A stretch of 63,997 nucleotides of DNA, filler included, from Stramenopiles sp. TOSAG23-3 (Eukaryota), in the NCBI GenBank assembly GCA_900128585.1. It is 13 parts of 13 records of this genome, joined end to end, with 100 filler letters (N's around TTAATTAATTAA, not from the genome) between each part and the next. Parts side by side here need not be neighbours in the genome. Positions count along the whole stretch, not along the records: positions 54,288 to 59,101 come from LT643694.1; 12 more parts are not named here. One strand, given 5' to 3'. Numbering within the stretch: position 1 is the stretch's first letter; each line of letters opens with the position of its first letter. The notes under the pieces are model-generated. The model had not been told where the DNA came from. It worked only from the letters and a program-made list of their open reading frames with translations, and did no database searches. Shown here piece after piece: positions 1-63,997 of this stretch. The translations under genes were made by a program, and so were the position numbers.

Positions 1-78
1 TCTAGATTTCAGTTTTCAGTTTTCAGTTCGCAGTACATTAATTTTAATTACTTAAATAACAGCCAATTTTCTTGTTTT
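1..78 (+). mobile_element. Copy of dispersed element family A (fixed end ...AATAACAGCCAATTTTCTTGTTTT), cut by the contig start
   Basis: TCTAGATTTCAG...TTCGCAGTACATTAATTTTAATTACTTAAATAACAGCCAATTTTCTTGTTTT recurs at about 28880-28938, 33921-33990 (reverse), 46785-46869 and 47003-47074. It ends 3 nt from the stop codon of the 82..4849 gene. Confidence 0.8.
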
Positions 79-9592: not shown

Positions 9593-9794
9593 ATGAGTCC
9601 AGCCAAGACAAGAAAAAAGTCTTCCACCGCCAGCACTGGGGATGCCGAGTCTTTGTTGCCGACGAAGCGGGGTGCCAAGTCTCTTGTCGTCGGTGTTGTA
9701 TTTGCCCTGGCTTTGTTTTGTGTTTGGTCAAAGCACAAGAACTTGAGCGTCGATGAGCGTAAGCGTGGTATGATTGGTTTGAGTCTCGGGGTTC
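9593..9794 (+). CDS. 5' fragment of a probable membrane protein, truncated by the contig end
   Basis: ATG-initiated ORF with coding-like composition and one hydrophobic segment (LVVGVVFALALFCVW), open into the linker. Confidence 0.45.
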
Positions 9795-10145
9795 NNNNNN
9801 NNNNNNNNNNNNNNNNNNNNNNNNNNNNNNNNNNNNNNTTAATTAATTAANNNNNNNNNNNNNNNNNNNNNNNNNNNNNNNNNNNNNNNNNNNNGAGGCC
9901 AGTAAGAACAGAGACGCGATAAGGATGTAATAAAACGCCGTGTACAGCGACGCAAAGTCGAGACAGTACTGTTTATATTCTTCCACTTTTATTTTTTGTT
10001 TTGTTTTTTTTAGAAATGAAGAAGTGATTTTTTGTCAAGAAGAAGATGTGATTTAATAAAATAATAGAAGAAAGAAAGAAGAACGAATATCGTGAAAATA
10101 AGGAATCCTCATCCCTAACATTATACTGTATGCTCTGATGATACT

Positions 10146-10283
10146 GTACATTTAATAATATAGATACAGCATTAAACCAGTCGGTTAAAAAATGGTAAAA
10201 AAATGAAATCTTATAGACACACACAACATACAGCATACAGTACACCCCCCCATGGTTTGCACTAATCGTGCAAAGCACAATAT
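10146..10283 (+). repeat. Dispersed repeat family B, copy 1
   Basis: TTAATAATATAGATACAGCATTAAACCARTCGGTTAAAAAATGGTAAAAAAATGAAAT...ACACACAC...CCCCCC...CTAATCGTGCAA is shared with 39509-39625 on another contig. Confidence 0.8.
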
Positions 10284-10559
10284 CAAGTAAAACCACCAGT
10301 ATAATACAGTGTAATAAAAGCCCCAATATTACCTTAAATTTCCCCAATATTATATTGGTTGGAGAAAATAATATAAAATGTTCCTCACCACTTTTCCGTA
10401 TCTTCTATAATAGATCCTCCCTCAAGCGCTTTACCAACAGTAAAATGTATGTTTCCTCCCTAAGTTTCGTTTCCATCTCTTTGACCTTGAGTCTAGTCTA
10501 CAGTCTACAGTTAGTTCTCGTTCCCACCATTGTCCCTGCCCCTCCCCCCCTCTCTCATT

Positions 10560-11594: not shown

Positions 11595-12480
11595 CTTGTG
11601 ACGGAGTAGTTACAATTTGGTTGTTGCTGGCGGTTGTCATATTTACACTTTGAAGTTTAAATATGTTCGTGTTGTTTGAAGTCATACGCCTGACAAGAAA
11701 TTTTAAGTTATTTGGAAAAGATGACATTGGTATCTATGAATATAACTAACATACAAAAAAAAAAAATGAAAAAATTTTATTTTTATTTTATTATTTTCTT
11801 CTTTATAATACAGTATAATACTTCTCAGCGTTTATTTTTTCGATCGAAAAGTAGATAAATATTACATCATCACAACATTACAATACATTGAATAACGTTG
11901 AAATAAAGTAACATAACGGCAATATTCAAATAATTCCTTAAATTGTTAAATTCATCGTGAATGAAAAAAATTCATTGCTCTTTTTTTTCTTCTTCTTCTT
12001 TTTCTTTTTTTTTTCTCTTTTTTTTTTTTTCTTCTTTTTTTTCTTCTTTTTTTTCTTCTTTTTTTTCTTTATTAATAAATAATATGCACTGATAGCGTTG
12101 TTTGGCGAGAAATTAAGCCGTAGGAAGGTCACAAGGTCACTAATATAATAAATAATAATAAATAAAATATAATACAGTAGTGTTATTATTAGGTCAGATG
12201 TATTGGTCTCAAAAACTATTTTCCCCAGCAGTGCTGACCTTACTTGTTCATGTGAACGACTACAGCGCGTACATAATCGTAGATACACGGCCTTCTTTTG
12301 ATTATTAGATAAGAATAGCATCAGCATTTTATAATAATAATAATCGGCGGAGGATAAAAAAAAAACAGAGTTGAAGATGATATTTTTTCCTATCAATACA
12401 TATACAGTACAGTATAAAGTATATTATAAGTGACTATTGTTTCCTATGAAGCGTATTCATATATCTAGTATAAGTATGAT

Positions 12481-19082: not shown

Positions 19083-19775
19083 TGTGTTTTTATGAATTAT
19101 TAAACATTTCAGGGACTATTTTATGACACGCACAGTTCTTCTTCTTCTGTTGTTTGTTCTTCATTTTTTTCTTCTTCTTCTTCTTTTTTCTTCTTCTTCT
19201 TAGACTATTATACCAAAAGGTATATTTATATAATAATAATATGGCTGGAGCCCTGTGGTGTGATGATGATGATGATATTTGTTATTATATTGTTGAGATG
19301 AGATAAGATGATATTATAAGATGGAAGGGAGGATGATAATTATTATTATTATTATTTTTATTTCTTCTTCTTCTATCTCTTCTTCTCTCTCATCCTCCTC
19401 CTCAACTCCTCATCAATCAATCAAAAAAACATTTTCATCCATCCATTAATTCCCTGCTGTGCTCTGTTTTTTCGTATTAATTAATTATACGGACTTTAAA
19501 ATAATGTAAAGTAATAATAAATATGATGTTATAAAATGTGATAATTTATTTAATAATAGTAATAAATAATAATAATATAGTAGTAGTATTATACTTATAT
19601 ATAATTAAAGAAATAATAATGGTGACATACTTTTTTTTTAATTAATACCATTTGGAGATTCGTTTTTTGAACATTNNNNNNNNNNNNNNNNNNNNNNNNN
19701 NNNNNNNNNNNNNNNNNNNTTAATTAATTAANNNNNNNNNNNNNNNNNNNNNNNNNNNNNNNNNNNNNNNNNNNN

Positions 19776-19854
19776 AATGTATTATAAATAATTTTCCTTT
19801 TGTTTGACTGTTGTTTACTGTTTGGCCCAGCGTTTTTTAATTCAGTTTTTTTTT
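19776..19854. repeat. 79-bp exact inverted duplicate of 23399..23477 at the contig start (probable assembly artefact)
   Basis: Reverse-complement identity over exactly 79 nt. Confidence 0.9.
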
Positions 19855-22844: not shown

Positions 22845-23745
22845 CTATAGGCGGAGTTGTCTTTGGCCACTTGTTCATTCGTCATTCCTTCCCCGTTCAC
22901 ATTTCTTTTGTTTCTAATGCAAATGGCACTAGTTGATCATGATACGGAGAACCAAGTTAATATACATTTTAATTATAATACTCTTATTAAAAAAAAAAAA
23001 CACTTTGGATTCACAAATTTACGATTTCAATGCGCTCCGGTATTATCTGTGTATTAATTTAAAATAATAATATACAATAATATGTTGTGCATCATATAAT
23101 AGAATGAAATCTAAATCTGTAATAATATAGTAATATAATGTCATCATCAATAACCATCATCATTATCTCCTCTGAGATCTGAGATGAATTAATTACCTAC
23201 AAAAAAAGTAGAAGAAAGAAGAAGGAGAAGAAAGACTGAAGCAGAAGAAAAAAAGAAGATCAATAAATGTACTCAACGTTTTGTGTTAGTTGCAATGGTG
23301 GTGCCTGATTTAATTTTTAAACTTAAAATAAAAACTTATTTAATACAAATTACTGTAAAATAATATACAATAACATACAGCCAATTCTTCTTGTTTTTAA
23401 AAAAAAACTGAATTAAAAAACGCTGGGCCAAACAGTAAACAACAGTCAAACAAAAGGAAAATTATTTATAATACATTAATTCCGGATGTAATTTACATCA
23501 ACTTATGCTTCACCAATCTCTCCTTTGCTTGGCGCATTAAATAATAGTCCTATAGTAATTGCAATGATTGATGCCATATTTTATATTATAGACTAATAAC
23601 TGCACAGCACCACCAGAGTAAAATAAATGAAGAAGAGGAGAAGATAATTTTTAATATAATACTACTATACTATATAGACACTACTATACAATTAAAATAA
23701 AAAAAAATAATAAATAAATAATAAAGTTGTAAAGATACATTCTAA

Positions 23746-24610
23746 CTATAATTTTTTTGTGGGTTGGTTGAGTCCACCATTGAGTTCTTCCGTGGGTTGG
23801 TTGAGTCCACCATTGAGTTCTCCCGTGGGTTGGTTGAGTCCACCATTGAGTTCTCCCGTGGGTTGGTTGAGTCCACCACTGGATCCTCCCGCGGGGACGT
23901 TACACAGCATATCCGCCGTTGTTGTACAAGGCTGCTGTACCCCATGAGAACAAGTTGACCCATCTGTACATTGCTCNNNNNNNNNNNNNNNNNNNNNNNN
24001 NNCCGTTGCTAAACCCAAAACCAGCATCACACGAAGTTGTATCATCGTTCACACATCGGTTATTTTCAGAATGTTGACCAGCGGTGCATGGTTGACATAC
24101 GCCGTTACTATCGAGTCCGTGCCCCGCTCCACATTTGTCCTCGCACACAGTATTATGAGTAGGGGTACACGCTGAAGTTTCAATTTGGCCACTCCCGCAT
24201 ACTTCACAGTTTTTACATTCCATGTCGGAATTGGCAGATTGTTGGAATGTTTTTCCTGATTCGCACGCCGTGCACGAACCGTCTGCGGTAGGACCGCCAT
24301 TGCTAAACCCATACCCAGCCTGACAACTTCCGCACGGAGTTGTTGTGCCGACGAGACAATTTGTTGTAGAGTCGCTTTCACATTTATTTGATATTGAATG
24401 CTCAGTATTATCGCATGCTTCACAAGTATTTTCGCCGGGCTTCAACCCGTAGCCCGGGGTACACACGCAATTGCCATTATTATTATCGCAATCCCCGCCG
24501 GAACCACACACCACACCATTGCATGGGTCACCGTTACACAGCATATCCGCCGTTGTTGTACAAGGCTGCTGTACCCCATGAGAACAAGTTGACCCATCTG
24601 TACATTGCTC
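23746..24610 (-). CDS. 3' fragment of a cysteine-rich repeat protein (EGF-like and TNFR-like modules), interrupted by a scaffold gap
   Basis: CNGVVCGSGGDCDNNNGNCVCTPGYG (EGF-like), CKNCEVCGSGQIETSACTPTHNTVC (TNFR-like), repeated AGYGFSN/AGFGFSN. Ends in GGLNQPTGELN repeats. Confidence 0.7.
23759..23878. repeat. 33-bp tandem repeat, about 3.6 units
   Basis: GTGGGTTGGTTGAGTCCACCATTGAGTTCTYCC at 23759, 23792, 23825 and 23858, with no spacers. Encodes GGLNQPTGELN on the minus strand. Confidence 0.95.
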
Positions 24611-28678: not shown

Positions 28679-28938
28679 GCTAATCCATCTATCCATTCAG
28701 ATTATGCATGGAGTACACCTTAGAATAATAGTCAACAATAAGTGACAAGGGTATATCGATTAGTAAAACCAAAAGAGAACAGATAAGTTTAATTTTAATT
28801 ACTATAAAAAATAACAGCCAATTTTTCTTGTTTTAAGTTCGCAGTACATGAAGGAATGTAAACCTTGAATGTCTAAATCTAGAGTTCAGTTCGCAGTACA
28901 TTAGTTTTAATTACTTCTTAAATAACAGCCAATTTTCT
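28679..28938 (+). mobile_element. Family A element, longest copy, with a short copy nested inside
   Basis: GCTAATCCATCTA...TGACAAGGGTATATCGATTAGTAAAACC...GATAAGTT[insert 28790-28833]TAAGTTCGCAGTACATGAAGGAATG...AATAACAGCCAATTTTCT. TAAGTT is duplicated at 28784-28789 and 28834-28839. Confidence 0.8.
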
Positions 28939-29299
28939 AGATATAATATAAGGATTTTAAAAAATTCTTATATCATATTATTCAACCCCAAAACAATGCT
29001 GTATCATAGTAATTCTTATTCGCAAATGTGAAATATTGATAAAACGTATTAATGTAATAACTAAGTTGAGCATATATTTACCAATAATGCTGTTCAATGT
29101 ACTTGGAAAAAAAAACCGGTAAAAAATAAAATAACCGCCTCGTGGTGCCGCAACCGGAGGTACCGCAGGCAACCGCAGCCGCCTCGAGGCAATAATCCAG
29201 AGTGTTATAATAACTTTGAAAGAATAACGGCTGTACGATAAAATGTGAAGGTAATGCAAATTACGCAGGATAAAGTGTTTGTTCGAGAATACAAGAAGG

Positions 29300-33260: not shown

Positions 33261-33894
33261 GTAACTTCGAATTGTTGCACAATTGCCAACAATAATTAGT
33301 CTTTTCCCGAATAAAATACTCAGGAGCTGAGTTTATTAGTTCTACCAGCCAAGGTCAGGGGCAAGGAAAAGGAAGTACTTGGTAAACGACTATAGCAGCA
33401 GCAATGATGATGTAACGACTATTTTTGTTGCTCCTGTGTTTTATTTTTATTTTTCTTGGTACTACAACAGGTACCAGGTATAAAACACTATTATTAGCTA
33501 CGTATTGAATACAACCCCGTAGTTAGGCACCTGGGTACGGTCGGTACGGGCACGGTTTTATACCGGTACCGGTAGCCGGTAGACCATCTATTAGACTTGA
33601 GTTCTGTAGTATTGTTGCGGTCTGTGACATTGTTTGTTACAGCCAACTATCGGTGCAGGTACGGAACGAACTTCCCGTACCTGGTATTTAATTATTCCAG
33701 TTCCCCGTACTGTAGCAGTGTACGGAACGGCTCCAAAAACTTGCATGTAATAAGTATTTTCTGACATTTAAATTTATTGGACACATTGTTCCCAGAGTTT
33801 TACAAAACACCTAAACTCCTCACAATGTAAAAAAAAATAAATTATATAGTATGTTTTAAGTCAAAAAAGTGTTGAGGTGTATATATAATAAAAA

Positions 33895-34041
33895 GAAAAA
33901 TTTGGCTGTTATAATAAAAAAAAACAAGAAAATTGGCCCCTGTTATTTAAGTAATTAAAATTAATGTACTGCGAACTGAACTCTAAATTTAGACATTCAA
34001 GTTTAGATTCCTTCATGACCTGAATCGGTAGATGGATTAGC
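33895..34041 (-). mobile_element. Family A element: a 15-bp mini-copy plus a longer copy
   Basis: GAAAAATTTGGCTGT lies between duplicated TATAATAAAAA (33884-33894 and 33910-33920), followed by AAAACAAGAAAATTGG...ATGTACTGCGAACTGAA...TTCCTTCATGA...GATGGATTAGC. Confidence 0.78.
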
Positions 34042-35907
34042 AATGCTTCCAGATGACCCATAATCAACTTCCTCGTCCAGTGTCTCATTCATAGGTGACT
34101 CATTCCTGGTGTGATTTTCAAAGCAGCGGCGAAATTGTTTTAGAGGTGCTATTAATAACAACACATTAAAAAATCGGAACTAATACTCATCGATGCGACT
34201 CCTGCAACACGTTTCTTTTCATCCCAGCGTGCCGATAGGATAGGGGTTTGGTGAACCATAGCCAGCGAGAACACCCTGGCGATACTTGCTTCCTCGTTCA
34301 CGGCCCTCCGACAAAGCCTGCAAGATTGCTGGTGCTCCCATAATATGGGGAATAACCTCGATTACAGAATTTTTCTGCCCCAGCACGGTTTTGGGAATTG
34401 CGCGAAATTGAAGACCCCCCGTTTCTGCGCTGATGTACTCAAGCGCTAAGGGGTAAGCAGACGACCCCGATGCCACANNNNNNNNNNNNNNNNNNNNNNN
34501 NNNNNNNNNNNNNNNNNNNNNTTAATTAATTAANNNNNNNNNNNNNNNNNNNNNNNNNNNNNNNNNNNNNNNNNNNNAGAAAAAGAAATAAGAAGAATAT
34601 AAGGAGGAGGGTGAATATAATATAATTAAGGTTTATCATATATTAAATATTAAAATTATATATGATTATAATATAAATAAATTATACTTTAAATATTAAA
34701 ATAATACTTAATTTATAAAACACCAGAAGCGATATATAGAATTGAGGTGAAAGAAAGAGAACACAAGCACAGAAGAGAAAGACTCGACATTTTATTTAAT
34801 TTTTAATACCGTACGCGCGTGCGTATAAGAAGAGTATTAAAACTGTGTAATAAAAATTGTTATAGAAGAGTCCAGTGGAATAGGCTTAAAACCTTGAATA
34901 ATAAGAGGGGAGAGAGAGAGGGGTTACGTAGGTATGAACGAATAAATGACGAAAATATATATAAATATGATTAGGATTAGGGTTATGAACAGACTATTGT
35001 ATTCCTATATACGAGTCCATTCCAATAACAATAACATAATAAAAATGGACAATCCACTGTTCACTGTTTTGGCACTTCCTCGTACTGTGTATAATATAAC
35101 ATTGATTTGTGGCTAGTTTTGGCGCAAAATTATTTATATATCTATAGCGAGAGAAGGTTTCCTCTGTTTCCTGTGCTTTATTTTTAATCATATTGTCTTG
35201 TATTTTATATTTAGTACTGGCATATCGTATGGCAACAGAATGTGGTTCTAGTCGATTGTTGTACTATTTATATATTCTATTACATACATTACCTATATAG
35301 ATATATTTTAGCCTTTCTTCTGGAATGCGAGATGAGGTGAGGAGAAGATGACAACATTCACATTACATATTACTACGGTATTATAATAATACCTGTACCT
35401 GGTATTAATATAATACAGGGACGACCCAGGTATAAATACCAATACCGTCTCTCTCCTCCTCCTCCTCCTCATGTATGTATTATTATTTATTTATTTTTTT
35501 TTACTGTATTATTTATTATTTTTTTTTCGCGAAGAAAGAAGAAGCAAGAAAAAAAAAAAAAAAAAAGAAGAAGAAGAAGAAGAAGAAGGAGAAAAGAAGA
35601 AAAAAGAAGAAGAAGAGAAGAAGAAGAAGAAGAAGAAAAAAAAAAAAGAACGAAAAGATATTATAGAAGAAGAACGAAAGAAGAATTTATATTATTATTT
35701 TATATTAAATATATATATATTATTTGCCTTACTCATAATAAAAATAATATATAATACATAATAAAAAGTTTAAATGGTCATCACGTACAAAAATATTACC
35801 CAACCTAAGATCAATCCGGTGTATTGAATCCGAGCACATCATCCTCTTTTTAGTTTTATTGGAGGTAGTATTTTATAGTTGGGATACACACTACACACTG
35901 CACTGCA

Positions 35908-37851
35908 ATGAGCGTGTCCGATCCGCGGTTTGCGGCCGTTCACAACGACCCTCGTTTCGCACGGAACGTTGAAAAGAAAACCAAAGTGAAAAAAGATGAT
36001 CGATTTTCGGCCATGTTTACAGATCCTGATTTTAACAAAGAAATTATGACCAAAGTAGACAAGTATGGTAGAAAAAATGTCCCTTCGAAACCATCTTCCG
36101 AGTTCGATTCGTCCGACTCCGACTCGGAGTCCTCTTCCTCCAGTTCTTCCGACGAGAAGTTGGCACCAAGCAAAGGCTCAACGAAAACCGAATCGAACAA
36201 AAAGCAGCCAAAAGGTAAAGATTCGGACCGGATGGAGAAGTTGAACAGGATGGCACGCGGCGAAGGGAACGATTCCGACTATTCTTCCAGCAGTAGCAGT
36301 AGCGATGCCGACGATTCAGACTCCGACACCTCCTCTTCGGACGAGGACGACGCCGAGTACTCTGGGCACGAAGAGTACAACGAAAATCTGGGACACGTAG
36401 AGTATATCCCGACAGGCGAGGAAACCAACCGGATAGCACTTGTCAACATGGATTGGGAGCATGTCAAAGCTGTCGACATATATGCTCTGTTGCAATCGTT
36501 CGTTTCAGGACCAGGCGCGATTATGAACGTATCAGTATACCCGTCTACGTTTGGGTTGGAAAGAATGGCCTTGGAATCGTCCATAGGGCCAGTTGGGTTG
36601 TTTCAAAAGAGTAAAAGTGTAGCCGACGAATCTGGTCCAACCCAAGGTTCCAGTGAGCTCGGTGGTGACCTGGATGTTGAAAAGGTACGCCAGTACGAAA
36701 AGGACAAACTAAAGTACTATTATGCAGTGATCACCTGCGAATCGACGAAGACAGGAATTGCCGTCTACAACGAATGCGACGGTATGGAATACGAAACTAG
36801 TTCTAATGTACTGGACTTGCGCTTTGTCCCGAACGACACAAAGTTTGAGCGGAAACCAAGAGATACAGCGGACACAATTCCCCGCAATTACAAGCCCCCG
36901 GCTTGGTTTGCGACAAAAGCATTGCAACAATCGAATGTGAAGCTGTCGTGGGACGGGTCCGATGATGAGCGAGACGACAGGTTGAAGAATTGGCGACATA
37001 GTACAGATGACAAAAGCAGCAAAAAGTTAGCAAAAGAAGAAGATCTAAGGATGTACCTCGCCGGCGTGTCGGACGATTCAGACGCCGAGGATTCAAAGCA
37101 ATACAGCGCCAAATTGCCCGCTGGCGATAGGGAAGACGCAAAGAAAATGCGCATGCTGCTGGGCCTTGGGAACGAAAGCTCTGAAGACGAGGAGGAGGAC
37201 GGTGACGTGCCAGCTGGTTTTGATGCAAAAGACCTGGACAGCTCTGACAACGACGAGGTCTTAGAAATTACATTTACACCTGGCTTAGGAGAGAACTTGC
37301 TGAAAAAGAAGAGGCAGAAAGAGATGCAAAAGGGCGAAACAGTTTTTGAAAAATACCAACGGGAAAAAAAGAATAAACGGAAAGAGCGCCAACGATTGAA
37401 GAAACGGGGACGGGATGGTGATAGCAGCAGCACCAACGCTAGTGCCCACCACGGCAACACAGGTGGATTAAGTCGGGATAAACATAGCAAAGACAACGCT
37501 GGTTCCCTTCGGCGGGAGGTTGCTTCGAAAGAAGAGCTGGAACTTTTGATGAAGTCAGACAGTCTGGAGAAAGGAAGCAACAGTGGCCTAAAATCCCAGC
37601 AGTTAGAGGATTACGATTTTAACCAAATTGTAAAGGCCGAGAAACGAAGAAAGAAGAGGCGAAAGGGCAAGAAAGGAAAAGCGGAGCCAGAAATTGTGGA
37701 CACCTTTGAGGTGAACACAACAGACCCTCGATTTTCGGCTATGTACGACGATTCAAGTTTTGCAATCGACCCTACTCATCCTAAATTTCGGGACACTCGA
37801 AGCATGAAGAAGATATTGGCAGAGAAGGACAAGAAGCGCGGATTCAACTAA
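35908..37851 (+). CDS. ESF1: Pre-rRNA processing protein ESF1
   Basis: DPRFAAVHNDPRF, VDKYGR, TNRIALVNMDWEHVKAVD, VSVYPSTFGLERM, YYYAV, CDGMEYETSSNVLDLRFVP, NUC153 motif DPRFSAMYDDSSFAIDPTHPKF. Confidence 0.96.
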   Translation: MSVSDPRFAAVHNDPRFARNVEKKTKVKKDDRFSAMFTDPDFNKEIMTKVDKYGRKNVPSKPSSEFDSSDSDSESSSSSSSDEKLAPSKGSTKTESNKKQPKGKDSDRMEKLNRMARGEGNDSDYSSSSSSSDADDSDSDTSSSDEDDAEYSGHEEYNENLGHVEYIPTGEETNRIALVNMDWEHVKAVDIYALLQSFVSGPGAIMNVSVYPSTFGLERMALESSIGPVGLFQKSKSVADESGPTQGSSELGGDLDVEKVRQYEKDKLKYYYAVITCESTKTGIAVYNECDGMEYETSSNVLDLRFVPNDTKFERKPRDTADTIPRNYKPPAWFATKALQQSNVKLSWDGSDDERDDRLKNWRHSTDDKSSKKLAKEEDLRMYLAGVSDDSDAEDSKQYSAKLPAGDREDAKKMRMLLGLGNESSEDEEEDGDVPAGFDAKDLDSSDNDEVLEITFTPGLGENLLKKKRQKEMQKGETVFEKYQREKKNKRKERQRLKKRGRDGDSSSTNASAHHGNTGGLSRDKHSKDNAGSLRREVASKEELELLMKSDSLEKGSNSGLKSQQLEDYDFNQIVKAEKRRKKRRKGKKGKAEPEIVDTFEVNTTDPRFSAMYDDSSFAIDPTHPKFRDTRSMKKILAEKDKKRGFN

Positions 37852-37901
37852 AAAACAAGAAAATTGGCTGTTATTTAAGTAATTAAATTTAGCTTCCTCA
37901 T
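37852..37901 (-). mobile_element. Family A element short copy abutting the ESF1 stop codon
   Basis: AAAACAAGAAAATTGGCTGTTATTTAAGTAATTAAA begins immediately after TAA. Flanks are GATTCAACTA (37841-37850) and GATTCAGCTA (37902-37911). Confidence 0.75.
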
Positions 37902-38127
37902 GATTCAGCTATCATATCATAAAAGGCAGAAAGCAACAGAAAGAGTAGTGTGTTTAAGTTTTGTAATTCTTTTTTAATATTCAACAAATATCTCTAGGAA
38001 CATTTTCTGTATTTATAAGACTGAAAAAAAATAAGATGCTTGACCACACTTCGTAAGTAAGAATTCTTGTTTTACGAATTTTTATAAAATCTCATCTCCT
38101 GTCGTAAACTTGCGCCGCCGAACACTT

Positions 38128-39069: not shown

Positions 39070-39508
39070 GATGCTTTATAATCCGAGTTGTAAAAGTCAC
39101 ACGATTTGAAAGCAATAGAAAGGACCAAGACGAGCTGGGCTGCTATAAAATTGAGGTGAACTGCACATGCGTTACTCGTATGTCGAACCTACTGCTGCGT
39201 AAATATCAAAGGTTTATAAGGAAATGGAATCGGCACCATACATATATTTAAATATACATCGTGAACAACCTTCCTCCCTTCCTCTTGCTGCTTCGTTCTT
39301 CTTCTTCTTTTTTTCTCTTCTTCTTTTTTTCTCTTCTTCTTTTTTCTCTTTTTCTTCCCACGGGGTATCACATCTTCCTCAGTCCATCCCATCCCCCCTC
39401 CCTCCTCCNNNNNNNNNNNNNNNNNNNNNNNNNNNNNNNNNNNNNNNNNNNNTTAATTAATTAANNNNNNNNNNNNNNNNNNNNNNNNNNNNNNNNNNNN
39501 NNNNNNNN

Positions 39509-39625
39509 GTACACTTAATAATATAGATACAGCATTAAACCAATCGGTTAAAAAATGGTAAAAAAATGAAATTTTATCGACACACACACCCCCCCCCTGT
39601 CAGCTAATCGTGCAATCAACAATAT
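39509..39625 (+). repeat. Dispersed repeat family B, copy 2 (at contig start)
   Basis: Closely matches 10146-10283. Confidence 0.8.
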
Positions 39626-46322: not shown

Positions 46323-46472
46323 AATGCTTCCTCCACGCACGGTGTTTATTTAGTAGCACCCTGGTTCGGTATTTAATTCCTCACGAGAATCTTATAGCGC
46401 CCTGTGCGAAATACTGCGTTCCCACATGTCTCTGGGAAAATCGGAGTCACCCTACGGTGCTCACTTAATTTT

Positions 46473-47074
46473 AAACAAGAAAATTGTCTGTTATTAAGTA
46501 AATACTTAATTTAAAAAACAAGAAAATTGGCCTGTTATTTTATATGTAAAAGAAGCAAAAATTAAAATTAATGTACTGCGAACTGAAATCTAGATTTAGA
46601 CATGCCATTCTAGGTTTGCATTCCTTCATGAACTGCGAACTTATCTTTGCTCATGTGGTTTTACTCTAATCGATATACCCTTGTCAACCCAAAAATTTAA
46701 ACAAAATAATGGATGTTATACCCGGTATATTATTTTTAATTACTTAAATAACAGCCAATTTTCTTCTTGTTTTTATATAAAATCTCTAGATTTCAGTTCG
46801 CAGTACATTAATTTTAATTAAGATAAACATACTACTTAAATAAAAACAGCCAATTTTCTTCTTGTTTTTAATTTATAATCCATCTACTGATTCATATCAT
46901 AAATGGTCGTTCGGTCAAATCTACACTGATCGATTAGTAAAGACCAGAAGAGCAAAAATAAGTCTGCAGTTCATGAAGGAATGCAAACCTAGAATATCTA
47001 AATCTAGATTTCAGTTCGCAGTAGTACATTAATTTTAATTACTTAAATAATAACAGCGCCAATTTTCTTGTTTT
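46473..47074. mobile_element. Cluster of at least five family A copies in both orientations between convergent genes
   Basis: Reverse copies at 46473-46503 and 46513-46686; forward copies at about 46735-46773, 46785-46869 and 46876-47074. Near-duplication ACTTAATTT(T)AAA at 46463-46475 and 46504-46515. Confidence 0.82.
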
Positions 47075-47364
47075 AAATGTGAGTGAGGTTGTACGTTGTC
47101 GTTGTACCCCGATAAATTTTAATTTTTGGCCGTCAAACATAATTTCAGTATTCTTTTTGATAGGAACATTCATACCAAAATAAATTTGTCTTAAGGTACG
47201 AGGTCAATATCACAGATAAAGGTTAATGCTATTTAGATTATGTATATAATTTATAGTGATATTAGTTACTACCCATCCTTAGCTTTCTGTAATTTTACAA
47301 GACACTATAAAATTAATGATGAGATTGTTTTTAATTTTAAGATTTCTTAAAACGGAAACACAAG

Positions 47365-48864: not shown

Positions 48865-50846
48865 GTTTGTTTAGAAATTCCGCACAGAATTATTTCCCCT
48901 GCTAGACTTCAGTAATGACGGTTAGACTGGTTGCCGTATACACCCCCGCCTTGATTTCTGCCGCAAAAATATTCCTGGGCTCAAAAAAAAAGAAGAACCT
49001 TACAGTTATGAATAAATGAAACGGTATACCATCATTATTCAATTCAAATTATCACTTTAATCAATAATTCACACAACAACACACTACACTTCCCCCCCCC
49101 TTCTTTTTCCGCCGAGAAGTACGAAAGAGAAGTAAAAAAAAATAAGGAGAAGAAGAAGAAGAAGAAGAAGAAGAAGAAGAAGACGACGAACCAATCATCT
49201 GATGATGAGGAGGAGGAGGATGGAGGAGATTATTGTTTTTTTGTGTTGCTCCTCGTCTCTCTCTCNNNNNNNNNNNNNNNNNNNNNNNNNNNNNNNNNNN
49301 NNNNNNNNNTTAATTAATTAANNNNNNNNNNNNNNNNNNNNNNNNNNNNNNNNNNNNNNNNNNNNAACCTTAACTACTGAAAAAAAGAAGGAGGACGAAG
49401 AAAAAAGAATTTTTTGAAAGAGAGGGAAATATTTAATTTTTTTTTCTGTTGTTAGTGGTTGGTTGATATTCGAACAAACACCTCGGCTTTATTTATTTTT
49501 AAGACTATGTTATTATATAGGATAAGGATAAAATAATAAACGATAAAATTAATAATCCTCTTTCTCTGTATACGAAGTCAAAACAATATATAATTAAATA
49601 TTATTGATATTAAATCCTTTAAAAAGTAAAATTAGAATATGTCAACATATGCTCTACGGATACTGAAAAACGTAATTTATTAAACATGTGAAAAGTACAA
49701 TGCAGTCAGATGCCACAAAATGTTGATGATACATTATTTTTTATAATCATAATAAAGATTAAAACTAAAGTAAAAAAATGGAAGTCAGCAAAAGAGGGAG
49801 TTTGATTGTGTTTGGTATACTGAAAGTAAATTAAGTTATTTAGTTTACTATTGTCTCTTAGTTGTTTTAAAATATTAAGGACATAATGTAATAAAAGCAC
49901 CGTAAATATGGGCATTCGAATCTCTCAAAAGCCAGCTGGCTCAATTTAACCGTAAGGTAATATTATACATTAATTGACGTATTATTTATCGTTTTCGTTT
50001 CGGGAAGTACTTATTTATATATATATACCATAGTATAATATAAAACAAAAGTGAATAAATAGTTTAATCCCTAAATTTATATTCCTTACTTTTTATTTGG
50101 AAAGGTCCGTCGTTTCTGGTGTCACCCTCACATATGCAAATTAATACATCAACACAGTAGGGAGGAAAATCAGATTTTAAATGGCTGTTGTCTCCCTATT
50201 TAAAAATGTATACTAAGAGAAAACTAAGAAGAGCTGAGGAGCCACGTAATGTATTTTGTCTATGCTATTGTTTGTTAATGTTAAAGTTGTTGGTTGGTTT
50301 TTGATTGACCTAAAACGAGAAAAAGCACAAGAACACAACAACAAATAAAAAAAGAATTAATGGAGAAGAAGAAGACAAAAAAACACCATCATCCACCAAC
50401 AGCCAACAGCACAACAGCAGCAAACAACAAACAAACAACAACAACAAAACACACACCGGAAGGAGAGAAAAAAAGTAAGTAATTAAGTAAGAACAAGTAA
50501 GAAAGTAAAAACGAACGAACGAAAAGAACGAACGCAAATGTGTGTCTAAGTACGATTTTCCTAGCAATCTTTGCTCAATGTTACATTATTTTAAAGAACG
50601 AAAGCTGTGTGGAAACTTAAACCCCGACGAAAACCTTTGTTAGTTTTTGGAACGTTTTGCGCGTGTGTGTTATCTTTCCTTCACTCCTGCACCACTGTCA
50701 GCCAACAGCAGCTGATTGCTCGTGACACGTTTTTTTAGTAGATCCGTTGCGAACCCCCGGAAGACTTCCCCCACCCCTCTCACACATTTCGACCGCTCCA
50801 GACAACGACAAACGGAAGTAGCAGGCGCAATTGGACGAGGAAGAAC

Positions 50847-51728: not shown

Positions 51729-52196
51729 TCGCTGCCGGTATTGGGCGGACCCATGCACTTGCTCGGCGGCGGCAAGGGGGAGAGGAGACGGTGGGGGGTC
51801 CTGCGCGCGCGCGCAGTGCACAAAAATAGTTTAGCAGGCAGTAGAAGCTTCTTTTTCGAGCTCGTATATAGAGAAAAACACTAATTATATAGTATGTTTT
51901 AAGACTCTCAAGATTATCTCAATTGTAAGGTCAATTCGTGACTATGACTAAAAGACCATCATTCCTATGATATGTTACCATACGATCGTATATAGAGTAT
52001 AAATTTTCCTTTAATAAAAAAAAAGTGTGTGTACTTAAGTACAACAACAACAAATTCCCTGCTTTATAAGCAGAGTATTATTAGTTCTTAAAAGATTATA
52101 AAAAAACAAATTATGTATTTAGAAGTATCGCATGAGTACGTTACGAACAAAATAGCATTGCGCACACCCCTCTACCCCTTACTATACCGACACGGG

Positions 52197-54125: not shown

Positions 54126-55208
54126 TTCCTTCCGTTCATATCAATCAACCAGTTGTCCTGTTTATCGTAAACTAAATACAAATTAATNNNNNNNNNNNNN
54201 NNNNNNNNNNNNNNNNNNNNNNNNNNNNNNNTTAATTAATTAANNNNNNNNNNNNNNNNNNNNNNNNNNNNNNNNNNNNNNNNNNNNAAAAAGGATAATA
54301 TTTTCATCGTGTTGTTTTTTATTGAGAATGCGAATAGTATGGGAATAGCATTGAACACTAATAGAAAACTTTTACATATCTATTTTATTGACAAAGGAAT
54401 GTCAGTATTTATATTTATTGAGATATATATATAGATATGAAAATTTTAAATGTAGATTTATACACACAGACTTTATGAAAGAACTTTTAAAGTTATAAAA
54501 TCGCAGTCAAAATAATTAGCTTATTCATATGCTAAGTAACATAGCATATGATTAAAATAATGTTGTTTACAATGTTTAGAGTAGAGGCTCATGGGAGTGG
54601 CCGAAGGAGCCACGGAAGAAAAAAATGGCAGTTGAGACAAACTGTGGACACAATCAACAGCTAACGACACGAAGGAGTACGAAGGGAGGAAAGGGCGACA
54701 CCGGAGCAACGATGCCCAAGGTGGATAACAATCGAAGAAATACAAGGTGCAAAGATGAAATAAAAAAGTTTGGAAATAAACTACATTAAGAGACAGAAGA
54801 AACTTCGATAGACGTAAGAGAACGTCGCCCTGCTCAGCCAAGGATGGAATACAAAGGAATGCATTTCCAAGGTAGAAAAGTGTTGGCGGAGTACGAAAAA
54901 GAGAAGAGGAGTGTATTTTCTTCTATCGTTCTTGGAAAGAAAAACGACCGTTTTCTATTTTGTATCAATTGATAGATTGATCGATGTTCATGCATTTCTT
55001 CAGAATACCGATTAAGGGGTTGAACATTTAGGGAGGATTTAGTTTTGGGTTTGCAAGAATAGAGAGGGGGGAAGAAAATAAACACACACACAGAGAGAGA
55101 GAGGTAAATACATAGCTCTGCATCTTTTTAGATTGAGGTTTGCTGAGCCGCTGCGCGAGTGTTCTTTTTGTTATATTATACCATTTTGTAAAGCGCGATT
55201 TCTGTTTC

Positions 55209-55547
55209 ATGTCACGTAGAATTCTCAAGCAGCAGCTGAGGTCCTTGTTAAGTGATGGGAAAGGTAATAAACAAAAGGGCAAGGGTGCGTCTGGAGAAAA
55301 GGGGGAGGGGAACAAATCAAAAGGAAAGAAAGGCAAAGGTACCCGTAAGCGAAAGCTACGGACAGGCAGAAAAGTTGTTGCACTAGAGGCGAAACTGCAG
55401 ACGAAAGCTTTGATGGGCGAGCTGCGTTCAGAAAAACGCAAGAAGAAAGAGCAGGCACGAAAGAATATTGAAGTCTTGAAAACACTTGGAACAAATACTC
55501 ACATGGACACAGCTCTTCAGGCGTTGAAGAGAAGACGACGACGATAG
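55209..55547 (+). CDS. Small basic protein, weakly AROS/RPS19BP1-like
   Basis: MSRRILKQQLRSLL, Lys-rich middle, QARKNIEVL; coding-like composition. The family call is tentative. Confidence 0.5.
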   Translation: MSRRILKQQLRSLLSDGKGNKQKGKGASGEKGEGNKSKGKKGKGTRKRKLRTGRKVVALEAKLQTKALMGELRSEKRKKKEQARKNIEVLKTLGTNTHMDTALQALKRRRRR

Positions 55548-55661
55548 GTGTTGGTTGCGGAACAACTAATACAAAGATCTTTCTAAAATATCACTTCTAC
55601 ACCAATTTTGTTTCATGGGCAACAGACGAGAAACCCATTTTTAGCTTTACAACGTTTAAAA

Positions 55662-55686
55662 ACAAGAAAATTGGCTGTTATTTAAA
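55662..55686 (-). mobile_element. 25-bp family A mini-copy flanked by a perfect 13-bp duplication
   Basis: ACAACGTTTAAAA (55649-55661) - ACAAGAAAATTGGCTGTTATTTAAA - ACAACGTTTAAAA (55687-55699). Confidence 0.85.
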
Positions 55687-55787
55687 ACAACGTTTAAAAG
55701 TATTAAAAATTAAAATGTGCTTTTTATGAATAAGAAATGGTGTAAGATAATTTAAGTTAAACCCGCTGCACTTCCCCCACCGTGGGT

Positions 55788-57071
55788 TCATAATCTTGCA
55801 TGTTTTGGAGGCAGCACTGAGATGACCACCTTCTCCACGTCCTCGTAGCTCATGTATTTTGGCACTGGGTACCCCATATCCCCGATGTTCAGGACGCTCC
55901 CTTCGCCGTGGGACTCTACCATCGCCCTTTCTACAACCCGGCGAACGTCCTCTGGCTTCATTTTATTTACATACTCAGGAATTTTCATTTTAGCGTTCAT
56001 ATCCCGCACCAATTTAATATAGGATTTCGCGGCATTCAACTTCTCCCCATCGTCAATGAGCACTTCATACCTCGATACCGCACCAATGGCAATGGCGAGC
56101 TCTACAAATTGGTCCACGCAATCCGCGACGTAGAAATCCAGAACGTACGGCATCAGCATAGCGTTTGCTACCCCGTGAGGAACGTGAAAATACGCACCAA
56201 GGGTGTGTGCTATCGCGTGCACGTAGCCGACGGCGGCATTGGTGAAGGCGAGCCCGGCTTCAAAAGAGGCAATCAGCATCTGCTCGCGCGCAAACAAGTT
56301 TTTCGGTTCATGGTAGCACGTTAATAAATGTTTGCCGATGCGCTCCACGGCGCGCAGCGACTTCAACCTCGTATCCTTGTTTGCCCAGGTTGACAAGAAA
56401 CTCTCCGTGGCATGGGTAAGGGCGTCCATTCCAGTCGCAGCCGTGATATGAGGAGGCAGCGACACTGTCACTTCCGGGTCCAAGACGGCAATTTTAGGAA
56501 TCATAACGGCATCTGTTAGGACCAATTTAATCGCTCTGTCTTCCATGAACACTACCGCCGCTACGGTCGTCTCCGATCCGGTACCAGACGTCGTCGGCAC
56601 AGCAATTAGCGTTGGGTACTTTGCCGCCAGGGCTTTGCTAAAGCCTGCAACTTTGTAATTTCCTTTGTACTTTATGATCGGCTTCGGGTTGCATACCTTT
56701 GCACCAATGACCTTCGCACAGTCCATCGAAGAACCACCTCCGACAGCAATTATCCCATCGCAACCATTCTTGCGGTACAACTCATACCCATCCTCGACTA
56801 ACCGCTCTGGACAGTTCGGGAGCACTTTCGCAAAAACAGTATACCTTACACCAGCCGCGTCAAGGCTCTGTTCAACTGCACCGACGAGACCAATCTTTTC
56901 CAGCACTTCATCCGAGACGATAAGGACATTACGACACCCTGAATCTTTCGCAATACTTCCCATATTCTTTAGCTGCCCGATCCCAGAAACCATTTTTGGA
57001 ACGGGAAGGGCAGGCTTCAGTTTTGAAACCAGCCACGTCTTGAAAGCATTGGACCTTCCAGCTTCTGTCAT
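55788..57071 (-). CDS. Iron-containing alcohol dehydrogenase
   Basis: IIAVGGGSSMDCAK, VPTTSGTGSETT, TGMDALTHATE, GYVHAIAHTLG...HVPHGVANA. The likely ATG is at 57071. Confidence 0.93.
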   Translation of the reverse strand: MTEAGRSNAFKTWLVSKLKPALPVPKMVSGIGQLKNMGSIAKDSGCRNVLIVSDEVLEKIGLVGAVEQSLDAAGVRYTVFAKVLPNCPERLVEDGYELYRKNGCDGIIAVGGGSSMDCAKVIGAKVCNPKPIIKYKGNYKVAGFSKALAAKYPTLIAVPTTSGTGSETTVAAVVFMEDRAIKLVLTDAVMIPKIAVLDPEVTVSLPPHITAATGMDALTHATESFLSTWANKDTRLKSLRAVERIGKHLLTCYHEPKNLFAREQMLIASFEAGLAFTNAAVGYVHAIAHTLGAYFHVPHGVANAMLMPYVLDFYVADCVDQFVELAIAIGAVSRYEVLIDDGEKLNAAKSYIKLVRDMNAKMKIPEYVNKMKPEDVRRVVERAMVESHGEGSVLNIGDMGYPVPKYMSYEDVEKVVISVLPPKHARL

Positions 57072-57904
57072 TTCCAAATTAATTATATATACGTATAGGT
57101 GTATATTTATAAAGCTGTTGCCGTGCAAGTAAAACTTTTAATTTTTAATGGCGTTTTATAAGAACTTTTCTCCTCCTACTTCTACTTTTTATTCAAAAAC
57201 AAACTCTCCATTTAATACTTTAATAACTGGGAAATGGAAAAATGCAACTTACTTGATGAATAATAGAGTTTTGTGGTTACATAATAATACAAAAAAAAAG
57301 AAAGAAGAAGAAGGAAGTTTTTGTGTGTTGTTGTTGTGATGATAGAAAATAGAAAAAACAAAACAACAAAAAAGATATTTGTTATAATATTTTTTTTTGT
57401 GGTGGTGTTGTCCTGTTATTTATTTTTTGAAGATGATGTATTTAGAAGAAAGAAGAATTTATTTTTCTTCTTCTCTCCTTCCTCCTTCCGTGATAATATT
57501 GGTACAGGTACTTATTTATCATTGCCTCCGTTGTTGTTCTTCTTATTAATATTAAAAAAATGAGATTTTTTTCTTCTTCTTTTTTTGATGATGATGCTGT
57601 GTTCATTCATATATATCTCGATATAAAAAACGACGACGGCGGCTTTTTTAGAAGAAGAAAAGAAAGAAAAGAATAGAACGATTACTTTTAAAATCTCCTC
57701 CCCACTACTACACATTTTTTCCCCCATTTTTTCATTTTGTTTTTTACTATCGAGCTGTGACGAGCGTGCGCTTGAAGGCCAGCGTTTTAAACCCAAATAT
57801 TTTTTTCTCTTCACCAGATATAGATAGGTAAACTAACACCGAGTCGAATCAAAGACCAAAGGGATTTTCAGATACAGTTATATGTTTTGTTTAATCCAAT
57901 CCAC

Positions 57905-58987
57905 ATGGGGAACACAGCCGCCACCGCCACCACCTCGTCCCAACAAGACACGGCGCCTCTACCAAGCGATTGTCTGGTGGTGAAGCTTCGTGAAGCTGAT
58001 ATGGTAGATGGCAGGGGGAGAACAAAGCCGTACAGTAAAGGCACCGTGGTAGAGATTGGATACGACGGCATAATTGACAACGAATGTGCGAAGAAAGGGG
58101 ATCGGGAAAAACACTATTACGATGACTCTAACCCTCCGCCAGAAAACGCAAATATTTTACTGCACTCTTGTTGCGCGCCATGCAGTGGTGCAATGTTTGA
58201 AGAAATGTTGAAACAGAAATACAACATAACCATTTTTTTCTACAATCCAAACATTCACCCAAGGAAAGAGTATGAGATTCGCAAAGAAGAAAACAAGAGG
58301 TATGCACGGAAGCACAAGGTCCCTTTTGTAGACTGCGATTACGATGCCCATAGTTGGTTTCAAAGAATGAAAGGCTTAGAACATGACCCCGAGCGAATCG
58401 GGTCTCGTTGTGTTGCATGCTTTGACATGCGGATGGAAGTGACGGCTCACTACGCAGCGACCCACGGCTTTCATTGCTTCACAACAACAAACGCAACAAG
58501 CCGCTGGAAGGACGAATCCCAGGTGGACGGGGCGGGATTGCGGGCAGCACGAGACGCTGCTGCGGCGGGCCACCAAGTCTCTCCAAAATTTTGGCTGCGA
58601 CGTTGGAAAACGGATGCTCTCACGAAGCGGAAATATGAAATTTCCGCGGAAGAGAGGTTTTATAAACAAGAATATTGTGGGTGCTCGTACTCTTTGCGAG
58701 ACTCAAATACATGGAGAAAGCAAAATGGAATACCACAGGTTCGTATTGGAGGGGAAATCGCTGGTTTAGGAACACGGTACTTTGAAGACCCTGAAGTAGA
58801 CGCCGAAGAAGAGAGCCAAGAAGTAGTCGATGCGTTCTTCAAAGCTGCCGAGGGTAATTTTAAGGAAGGCACTTCAAAGAAATGCAAAGAGGGTGGTCGC
58901 AGTGATGTTGTAACGACATTGAACGCAGTTTACGGTCAAAGAAAAAAAGAAACCGGTGGTGCAAGTTTATCAATGAACAATTGGTGA
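57905..58987 (+). CDS. queH: Epoxyqueuosine reductase QueH (DUF208) homologue with N- and C-terminal extensions
   Basis: LLHSCCAPCS, FFYNPNIHPRKEYEIRKEE, GLEHDPERIGSRCVACFDMRM, FYKQEYCGCSYSLRD. The likely ATG is at 57905. Confidence 0.92.
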   Translation: MGNTAATATTSSQQDTAPLPSDCLVVKLREADMVDGRGRTKPYSKGTVVEIGYDGIIDNECAKKGDREKHYYDDSNPPPENANILLHSCCAPCSGAMFEEMLKQKYNITIFFYNPNIHPRKEYEIRKEENKRYARKHKVPFVDCDYDAHSWFQRMKGLEHDPERIGSRCVACFDMRMEVTAHYAATHGFHCFTTTNATSRWKDESQVDGAGLRAARDAAAAGHQVSPKFWLRRWKTDALTKRKYEISAEERFYKQEYCGCSYSLRDSNTWRKQNGIPQVRIGGEIAGLGTRYFEDPEVDAEEESQEVVDAFFKAAEGNFKEGTSKKCKEGGRSDVVTTLNAVYGQRKKETGGASLSMNNW

Positions 58988-59079
58988 GATATTTATTATA
59001 TTTAACTGGGAGAAGAATCGAACTGTTGAATACAGATCTTAACATTTATTTGTTTTTTTATTATCATATCATATGTGAT

Positions 59080-59096
59080 AAGAAAATTGGCTGTTA
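59080..59096 (-). mobile_element. Family A mini-copy downstream of queH
   Basis: AAGAAAATTGGCTGTTA with ATATG on both sides (59071 and 59097); the contig ends at 59101. Confidence 0.55.
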
Positions 59097-59201
59097 ATAT
59101 GNNNNNNNNNNNNNNNNNNNNNNNNNNNNNNNNNNNNNNNNNNNNTTAATTAATTAANNNNNNNNNNNNNNNNNNNNNNNNNNNNNNNNNNNNNNNNNNN
59201 N

Positions 59202-60534
59202 CTGACACTTGCTTTTGCGCCGTCTCCAACATGGCCTGCATTTTTCTTATTTTACTTCGCTTTTCATCATTTGCCCGGGATGCCTTTTCCTCTGCTTCTT
59301 TGCACATTTGCTGGGACTCTTTCAATTGTTTGGACACTTCCTCAGAGGCTACACCAGATTTTTTTGCTTCCTTTGCCTCCTTCCCGACTCGAATCAATTC
59401 CGCCTGCGCTTCTGCAAGAATGTCGAGCAGCCCTTGCTTTTCAACTTTCAACACATTTACCTGCTTTTCCGCCTCTTCACATTTTTGCCCCAACGACGAT
59501 ATGTCTTTCAAGTAAAGTGCCGCCGCCGATTCTTCTTCCACGACGCCACCCCTCTCCTCCTGCGTTTCGGCAGCGCTGCCTTTGCCTTCGCCGTTTTGCA
59601 CTTGTTGTGTTGCAGTATGTTTTGCCGTCGACGCGACTGCCGCGGCGGTAGCTTCTTGCGCATGCCTTCGCTCTCTTTCCAACGATTCCTGTTCGTTCTT
59701 GATGCTTGACAGCTTCTTCTCGTGCTCCATTATCTCCTTTTTTAGGCGGGCAAACTTAGAGGCGTCTTTGCTCCCTAAATATTCACAGTGCTCTCGCAAA
59801 ATGTCGTTTTCCGCTTGAAGCGAGCGAACGTTACTCTGCAAATTTTCGAATTTCAATATGAGCTCGTCGACGTCGGTGCCCTCATCGCGCACAGCCCTCA
59901 CCGATTTTTCGAACGCCGCCGTCCTTTGACGCTCTTCTTCCAGGGCACCATCAAACATTTCTTTCACGCGCGGCGTTTCTATTCTACGAAGCAAATCCTC
60001 TTCGCTGAGTGCTTCTCGAAGGTCGTTCTCTTGTCGCTTCATGGCCTGGAGCATGTCTTTAAGAAGCGTATCTTTGCTCTTCATTCGCTGTTTGAGCTTG
60101 TCCTTCAAAATGGCGGCCTGTTTTTTGCTCAGCATTTTAAGTTTCATCAACAGATTCTGTGCACTGCGCTCTTGCTCCGAAAGCGTGTGTATGTCGTCAA
60201 GTGCTTTGGCGTAGTTGGTCCGCAACTCGTCGTAGATTTGCACCGGGCAAGTATTTTTGGTGCTTGTGCTCCTCGACGAGAGGCTTACCCTGGTCCGGGC
60301 TGCGGTCCCCGTCTCCGAGGACGAAGAGTTGTCAGCTTCGGACGACGATGATGTCGACTGGTAGTCGCCCTCGGAATCTGACGAAATACCCAACGACTCC
60401 ATCATTGCCTGGCGTTTTGCCCTATCGTCCTCCAATTTCTTGGAATTGATTTTTGCCGCGTTGGGTTTATAAGCCGGGGGCGACTTAAACTTTCTTGGTG
60501 CCCTCGACGCTGCACTCGACGAGAACGACGCCAT
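59202..60534 (-). CDS. Coiled-coil protein of unknown function, 3'-partial
   Basis: Long E/K/Q/L-rich helical ORF open into the linker; likely ATG at 60534. Confidence 0.75.
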
Positions 60535-63918: not shown

Positions 63919-63997
63919 TCCCGGGCAAATGATGAAAAGCGAAGTAAAATAAGAAAAATGCAGGCCATGTTGGAGACGGCGCAAAAGCAAGTGTCAG
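63919..63997. repeat. 79-bp exact inverted duplicate of 59202..59280 (probable assembly artefact)
   Basis: Reverse-complement identity over exactly 79 nt at the two ends of the contig. Confidence 0.92.

Follow-up and report, generated by a model that had tools for sequence, protein, structure and literature searches.

A repeated 3' terminus in a marine stramenopile window as the probable tail of a LINE-type retrotransposon family with very short copies

Among the repeats of the window (the whole stretch of DNA analysed here, 63,997 nucleotides), one short sequence with a constant end was followed in the present study. It is highly probable that this repeat is the shared 3' terminus of a non-LTR (LINE-type) retrotransposon family, whose 5'-truncated copies are inserted at T/A-rich sites by tail-anchored target-primed reverse transcription (TPRT), with a partner ORF that would encode the reverse transcriptase (RT). 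We read the element as a LINE family that is new, strongly divergent and extremely truncated on the 5' side, with a candidate R2-like endonuclease. A first-pass annotation, made from the sequence alone, had already proposed a retroelement inserted by TPRT, and the kept 3' end, the 5' ladder reaching down to 18 nt and the duplications of 6-17 bp described below agree with it.

The window, the shared tail and its copies

The window is composed of 13 eukaryotic pieces of 4796-4849 nt each, joined by spacers of the form N44-TTAATTAATTAA-N44. Its long intron-free ORFs code for an ESF1-like protein, a MATH-BTB protein, Rad1, an aldehyde dehydrogenase and a SNF2-type helicase with DUF4116 repeats. 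The tandem repeats of period about 75 nt at 4291-4847, inside a 1603-aa ORF, correspond to repeated DUF4116 domains. Since a dynein heavy chain, CFAP298 and ODAD1 are encoded by related metagenome contigs, the host is a flagellated, intron-poor eukaryote. In addition, the piece at 54288-59101 is present in 20 of the 24 listed public runs, from 15 studies, nearly all of them marine or seawater metagenomes. Overall, the host is an intron-poor flagellated marine eukaryote.

The sequence ...AATAACAGCCAATTTTCTTGTTTT is the common 3' end of copies on 7 of the 13 pieces, the other end being cut at differing lengths. Its 24-mer terminus has 7 matches in the window at up to 3 mismatches, against 0.01 expected, and none of 100 shuffles reaches 7; exact matches lie at 55-78(+), 37852-37875(-) and 55659-55682(-). 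The conserved tail common to the family is about 35-40 nt long and reads ...AATTACTTAAATAACAGCCAATTTTCTTG followed by a T-run, the 3' terminus being also written as ...CUUGUUUU. Behind this shared tail, at least three different bodies were found, which are called A, B and C; the subfamilies differ in their ORF ends and in their 3' UTRs. The window copies were recovered by self-BLAST and by a search with the longest copy, and the sequences were then read directly. The recovered spans are 1-87, 23377-23409, 28743-28951, 33909-34022 (reaching about 34149), 37841-37891, 46465-47078, 55655-55716 and 59080-59096, so that every place previously listed on the 7 of 13 contigs was found again. The earlier statement that all copies keep the same terminus is right for most of them, but in two of them (28921-28944 and 59080-59096) the final 5-6 bases are missing, and therefore the 3' terminus is not strictly invariant. 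The copies and the duplications around the shortest well-defined insert are as follows.

1..78, plus strand: subfamily-A copy, cut by the contig start; tail end 3 nt from the stop codon of the minus-strand 1603-aa ORF
23377..23398, plus strand: diverged short tail copy, from self-BLAST with the sequence read
28679..28944, plus strand: subfamily-A copy of about 266 nt including a nested insert, between convergent ORFs; last 6 bases unlike the usual terminus
28789..28834, plus strand: copy of a variant tail whose internal T-run has 5 T, 46 nt long, lying inside 28679..28944, with a 5-6 bp duplication
33893..33910, minus strand: 18-nt stub copy flanked by the 8-bp duplication TTTATTAT, directly behind the tail of the 33920..34149 copy
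33920..34149, minus strand: subfamily-A copy of about 230 nt, which comprises the tail, the 3' UTR and the final ~46 codons of the LINE ORF (...DEEVDYGSS...stop)
37851..37901, minus strand: copy of subfamily B, about 51 nt long; insertion point at the stop of the ESF1-like ORF
46465..47076, both orientations: nest of at least 5 copies between convergent ORFs
46473-46503(-), 46515-46690(-), 46725-46774(+), 46785-46869(+) and 46869-47074(+, about 206 nt): members of this nest, approximate spans
55649..55661, no strand: target-site duplication, first copy, 13 bp; perfect repeat of 55687-55699, and identical to the 13 ambiguous bases of the empty-site joint
55662..55686, minus strand: 25-nt stub copy of the LINE 3' tail, read directly; exact tail match at 55659-55682
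55687..55699, no strand: target-site duplication, second copy, 13 bp; perfect repeat of 55649-55661
59080..59096, minus strand: 12-17 nt tail fragment at a contig end, without the final GTTTT

Direct duplications flank several of these copies. The perfect 13-bp duplication that had been noticed around 55662-55686 was confirmed by direct reading. Around the 18-nt copy, 8 bp (TTTATTAT) are duplicated at 33885-33892 and 33911-33918; a duplication had been reported there (33884/33910), at a length of 11 bp. The case is similar for the 30-nt copy at about 46473-46503, where a duplication is present as previously described at 46463/46504, though its length is read as 9 bp (AAATTAAGT) instead of about 12. 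A duplication of 5-6 bp around the nested copy at 28789-28834 matches the 6 bp reported at 28784/28834. Furthermore, the copy of about 51 nt has a 10-bp duplication with 1 mismatch at 37841-37850 and 37902-37911. This last duplication includes the stop codon of the ESF1-like ORF, which means that the insertion struck the last codons or the stop itself.

Other repeats of the window were recorded beside this family. Another terminus, ...AAAACATACTATATAATTTGTTTTT, is likewise repeated, closes with a T-run and is often found beside the main family; it has 2 window matches at up to 3 mismatches (33833-33857(-) and 51876-51900(-)) against 0 expected, is exact in 4 metagenome loci (L012, L042, L099 and L101), and is probably the tail of another retroposon lineage. 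Exact 79-bp overlaps join 19776-19854 with 23399-23477, 23898-23976 with 24532-24610, and 59202-59280 with 63919-63997, two of them inverted; they lie at contig ends or beside an N gap and look like k-mer overlaps of a graph assembly, not biology. An 80-nt stretch is shared at 95% identity by 10146-10225 and 39509-39588 on otherwise unrelated contigs, one copy being at a contig start. Low-complexity stretches of 75-85% mutual identity, on five contigs (11970-12073, 19132-19204, 35531-35682, 39270-39357 and 49115-49194), could represent either a simple repeat or coding sequence of low complexity.

Copies in metagenomes and an empty site

With a 20-mer pattern of the tail, at least 132 metagenome loci were matched. 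These hold at least 141 distinct copies in 138 flank groups, and hence nearly all of the copies are independent insertions. In addition, the contig depths in the 161-nt bin with the tail add up to 1,733-10,408, compared with about 5-7 next to it (a value that is not a copy number), and the loose ends at this bin had a low consensus agreement (0.44-0.59). The high summed depth and the low-agreement loose ends indicate that the tail sits in very many differing contexts. Both results are in line with the earlier expectation of a very abundant element.

To examine the flanking duplications, each downstream flank was searched for an exact repeat of sequence in the 400 nt upstream; the repeat could start at any position between 4 nt within the terminal T-run and 3 nt past it. 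Of the 141 listed copies, 129 could be tested and 12 were left out for short flanks. An exact repeat of at least 10 bp was found in 46 of the 129 copies, in comparison with about 7 when flanks were permuted between copies and with 4 of 126 in a control in which the downstream flank was moved by 30 nt. At 11 bp or more, the numbers were 38 of 129 and about 3, respectively. Duplications no more frequent than in shuffled flanks had been named as a sign against a retroelement, and the observed frequency is well above that level. The length of the duplications is variable, from 6 to 17 bp.

For the analysis of insert lengths, the 46 copies were reduced to 43 by removal of two element-internal matches and one duplicate locus. 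Of these 43, 16 have an insert of less than 30 nt, 13 one of 30-59 nt, 5 one of 60-119 nt, 6 one of 120-249 nt and 3 one of at least 250 nt, so that 29 of the 43 duplication-flanked copies are shorter than 60 nt. When aligned, the 43 inserts form a step ladder from 18 to 335 nt in which all end on the same 3' base. One locus copy (L029) spans 283 codons. Truncation on the 5' side leaves copies of any length from more than 1 kb to 18 nt. As the metagenome copies were baited with the tail, the rarity of 3' truncation is not derivable from them alone, and copies of less than 20 nt are invisible among them. The 3' end is also kept by 6 of 6 window copies that contain an internal subfamily-A motif, and by 9 of 16 locus copies that had not been selected via the tail pattern; several of the 7 exceptions are interrupted by nested copies. 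The fixed 3' end with variable 5' truncation, a central point of the first-pass annotation, is supported by the ladder and by these two sets of copies.

The target sites are T/A-rich without a fixed sequence, as judged from 138 distinct flanks, and in 25 of the 43 cases the duplication starts inside the terminal T-run. The proposal of TTTAAA-like targets is compatible with this base composition and with these starting points. About 8 of the 43 duplications lie at or within older tail copies (L011, L013, L023, L095, L086, L090, L111 and L126), and the nests at those loci resemble the window nest at 46465-47076. In four loci (L029, L045, L072 and L107), an extra piece of 6-20 nt (ATGATA- or ATCATA-like) stands in the tail between ...TTAATTA and CTTAAATA; it is a subfamily marker or the result of template slippage. 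Four tail copies fold no better than their shuffles (z-scores from +1.72 to -0.46). Given this absence of a stable fold, any recognition of the tail would be of its sequence, or of a structure unseen by these tools.

With regard to location, 30 of the 35 classifiable loci are between convergent ORFs, 5 are in tandem and none is divergent, where classifiable means an ORF of at least 150 aa on both sides (35 of 132 loci) and some flanking ORFs are the element's own (e.g. L029:92-931). In the window, too, copies follow the 3' ends of genes, in two cases at a distance of 0-3 nt from a stop codon. Such a location may mean that T/A-rich 3' regions are targeted, or that insertions survive there because they do no harm.

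The earlier suggestion to look for empty-site alleles was taken up for the 25-nt stub at 55662-55686. Contigs of four metagenome runs from four studies were compared with 54288-59101. The joint 55648->55687 is present in one contig each of runs X1, X3 and X4 (three studies), and it skips exactly 38 nt, which equals the 25-nt insert and one 13-bp duplicate, with 13 ambiguous bases. The bridging contigs (1,319 nt in X1, 1,253 nt in X3) differ from the window by 2-3 bases per side. Run X2 covered the tail only, without flanks, and says nothing on the empty site. A precise deletion between the two 13-bp repeats would give an identical joint. Against such a deletion, the piece between the repeats is the tail of the family and dozens of other sites have the same anatomy; therefore, the joint is read as an insertion that is not fixed. 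The insertion at 55662-55686 is polymorphic in nature, with an empty-site allele in three marine metagenomes.

Coding body, reverse transcriptase and candidate nuclease

The bodies behind the tail were compared at the protein level. In bodies A and B, one frame stays open as far as a C-terminus that both share (...SRC..G.R......SDEEVDYGS...stop), behind which a 3' UTR of about 95-130 nt follows; body C, about 200 nt long, has this C-terminal peptide in a diverged form. The window copy at 33920-34149 matches residues 689-734 of the database protein P0069 by tblastn at 78% identity, with the stretch 34012-34149 aligned to the end of P0069. A phmmer search of 1.8 billion representatives returned 67 relatives, all of them short ORFs called on truncated copies. 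Longer relatives were obtained by word-indexed searches, namely P0068 (776 aa), P0069 (744), P0070 (851), P0074 (495) and P0075 (1,087), and also P0071 and P0072. P0068 has the B-type C-terminal end and P0069 the A-type. These proteins overlap each other: P0074 with P0070 at 60% over 226 aa (E 3e-79), P0074 with P0075 at 41% over 494 aa (E 2e-112), and P0075 with P0068 at 35% over 527 aa. When joined, they would extend the ORF to more than 1,000 aa and into an RT region, the link from RT to tail being pieced together from overlapping proteins that are encoded on different contigs and may belong to more than one subfamily or species. Because each body is the 3' part of a long ORF, A, B and C represent subfamilies of a single protein-coding element whose copies have lost their 5' side, and they are not SINEs. 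The 150 largest of the 185 ORFs of at least 130 aa around the metagenome copies contain no RT and are ordinary eukaryotic genes only. In viral contigs, the protein scan gave no relative, and five matches of the tail pattern there were discarded as chance matches within one phage gene family.

The signals for an RT are weak but concordant, and they suggest that the ORF encodes this enzyme. In residues 1-460 of P0075, RVT_1 is the sole Pfam family at E<=10 (E 0.0012, 19.1 bits, profile positions 35-160), with a score below the Pfam cut-off of 29.6. Whole-protein Pfam scans of P0068, P0069, P0070, P0074 and P0075 gave no RVT match at E<=0.1. Among the 30 nearest named ESM-Atlas clusters, 26 are RVT_1, with a best score of 0.95. 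Furthermore, RT motifs were read by eye: D..NAFN (DAKNAFN), QQGDP and YADD in P0075, and FADD at the beginning of P0074. The first-pass annotation had pointed to the longest copies as the place to seek an RT ORF, and the candidate so obtained consists of these motifs and the sub-threshold RVT_1 match (19.1 bits) in overlapping proteins.

About 600 residues past the RT, all members have a Cys/His cluster (C.C......C...HF.GCKSHG), followed by HN..ED, conserved D residues and K..KY. By eye, conserved columns of C, H, D, K and Y were recognised in two protein alignments, and the first K and the Y of K..KY are invariant in 5 of 5 aligned proteins. On the motifs read by eye, the C-terminal region is a putative PD-(D/E)XK nuclease with K..KY, as in R2-type LINEs; the resemblance to R2 is suggestive. 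The RG.W motif was not recognised. Neither P0075 nor the family profile has a sequence match to any solved structure, R2 included. The structure models are poor, with a mean pLDDT of 33.8 for P0075 and 43.3 for P0072; in the low-confidence P0072 model (pLDDT 43.3), the D residues are placed at strands and K..KY in a helix. With these poor models, Foldseek gave no match at E<=0.001 and VIA-align no Z>=5. Weak Foldseek rows at E 1-5 (two R2 entries and several PD-(D/E)XK cap-snatching nucleases) were not counted as evidence.

Alternative explanations, mechanism and comparison with known systems

The first-pass annotation regarded the repeat as SINE-like or derived from a Penelope-like element (PLE), and both ideas were weighed against a LINE. 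In the SINE-like case, a non-autonomous RNA carrying the LINE tail, possibly a Pol III transcript with a U-run end, would be the template of most short copies. Pol III transcripts end in a T-run, as does the terminus here, body C (about 200 nt) starts at a similar point in L010 and L030, and copies of less than about 40 nt hold the shared tail only, so that their template is indistinguishable. Every longer body examined (A, B and C), in contrast, runs into the LINE ORF or a diverged version of it, and the 5' ends vary without a common 5' head. The Pol III-type head that the annotation had suggested seeking was absent from both searches: ARAGORN found 0 tRNA-like genes in the window, and Rfam gave 0 families at the gathering score in the window and 20 loci, with no tRNA, 5S or 7SL head. 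As the bodies are 3' ends of a long ORF that would reach the RT region, the SINE-like label was given up, and we consider a SINE-like template improbable for the short copies.

A PLE, or a derived element that depends on the GIY-YIG-bearing reverse transcriptase of a PLE, would account for the nests seen here, as PLEs give 5' truncation, variable duplications and head-to-tail or inverted nests. The two marks of such elements that had been proposed as checks were both sought, with negative outcome: no hammerhead was found at the gathering score in the window or the 20 loci, nor at E<=10 in the nest region 46400-47150, and no GIY-YIG family at E<=0.1 in P0068, P0069, P0070, P0074 and P0075, that is, in the ORF parts seen, without the N-terminal part. 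Three Rfam rows at E 2-3 in the nest are at chance level. The region past the RT has a Cys/His motif and K..KY instead, and the Penelope-like proposal was likewise abandoned as very unlikely. A process at the DNA level, either the end of a MITE or other DNA transposon or the repeated templated patching of breaks from abundant DNA, is hardly more attractive and stands at the same very low probability; short, AT-rich, duplication-flanked sequences would be expected of it, but the duplications are of variable length (6-17 bp), the ladder has a single fixed end and the parent appears to encode RT motifs. Terminal inverted repeats, which had been named as the mark of a MITE, were looked for in three long truncated window copies, and no pair of at least 10 bp was present. 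Least credible of all, to the point of being nearly negligible, is an artefact by adapter, assembly error or contaminant. It is true that the contigs are short and that some have 79-bp exact end overlaps typical of graph assemblies. The same tail, on the other hand, is found in hundreds of contigs from independent assemblies and runs, which excludes the adapter match that the annotation had considered, and the copies are always within unique eukaryotic intergenic DNA, with site-specific duplications.

For the LINE-type family, the following course of insertion is proposed. A protein of the element would nick a T/A-rich site, and the freed bottom-strand 3' end, often ...AAAA, would pair with the 3'-terminal U-run of the RNA. 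The paired 3' end could then prime reverse transcription, and synthesis would mostly abort or switch template within 18-60 nt. A staggered second nick 6-17 bp away, with repair, would leave a stub flanked by a duplication. The autonomous partner in this scheme would be the ORF reconstructed from overlapping database proteins. A more specific reading is that the family belongs to an undescribed deep LINE lineage, with an RT below the Pfam threshold, an R2-like C-terminal nuclease without site specificity and an abortive stub of 18-60 nt as the normal product; we put it forward tentatively and regard it as somewhat doubtful.

The family offers a natural example of LINE behaviour in a small, gene-dense protist genome, in which nearly all insertions are tiny, dead on arrival and sited where they are least harmful. 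In an uncultured marine eukaryote, stubs with a recognisable tag and exact duplications could possibly be used to mark insertion polymorphisms in populations. They are also a warning for annotation, in that what looks like a regulatory motif, a repeat of 20-30 nt in a 3' region, may be a retrotransposon stub. If the nuclease is truly R2-like, this would be an R2-type element without site specificity, which bears on the evolution of target choice in early-branching LINEs. If the deep-lineage reading is true, TPRT in a compact genome would mainly generate short, sequence-tagged indels in the 3' regions that separate convergent genes, and such indels would still be segregating in ocean populations. 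In the literature searched, the 15-mer of the tail is in no paper, and searches for comparable stub-dominated or short abortive LINE insertions gave nothing relevant, general LINE papers only.

In comparison with known systems, the family is like Penelope-like elements in its truncated, nested copies and variable duplications, and unlike them in that no hammerhead or GIY-YIG was found here (in the ORF parts seen). It resembles the 5'-truncated, dead-on-arrival copies of LINE-1 in TPRT, in the pairing of target and RNA tail, in variable duplications and in 5' truncation. The tail, unlike that of LINE-1, is a specific sequence of 35-40 nt ending in T and not poly(A). Truncation is also far more extreme, since 29 of 43 copies are shorter than 60 nt, whereas L1 copies are typically hundreds of bases to kilobases long. 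Pairs of a SINE and a LINE with a common 3' tail represent stringent-type recognition, for example UnaL2/UnaSINE1 of the eel. As in such pairs, the terminal sequence is conserved here across otherwise different bodies, and a tail common to differing bodies suggests that the RT recognises it; the bodies, however, are LINE subfamilies and not Pol III-derived SINEs, and the tail is without a stable fold.

In domain order, as far as it is seen, the family is like the R2, NeSL, CRE/SLACS, Utopia and Hero LINEs (RT, long linker, Cys/His motif, conserved D and K..KY). The absence of poly(A) and the use of a specific 3' end are also shared with restriction-like-endonuclease LINEs. For R2Bm, PMC4838377 gives the order RT, CCHC and PD-(D/E)XK nuclease, with the RH motif in helix 1 and the catalytic lysine in K..KY in helix 2. 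Most restriction-like-endonuclease LINEs are site-specific, according to PMC4640811, and in this respect the present family differs from R2-type LINEs, as it is found at 138 different T/A-rich sites. The kind of element, a LINE moved by target-primed reverse transcription, is already well known; what is new is the family itself, the divergence of its RT and the dominance of stubs of less than 60 nt that are polymorphic in nature.
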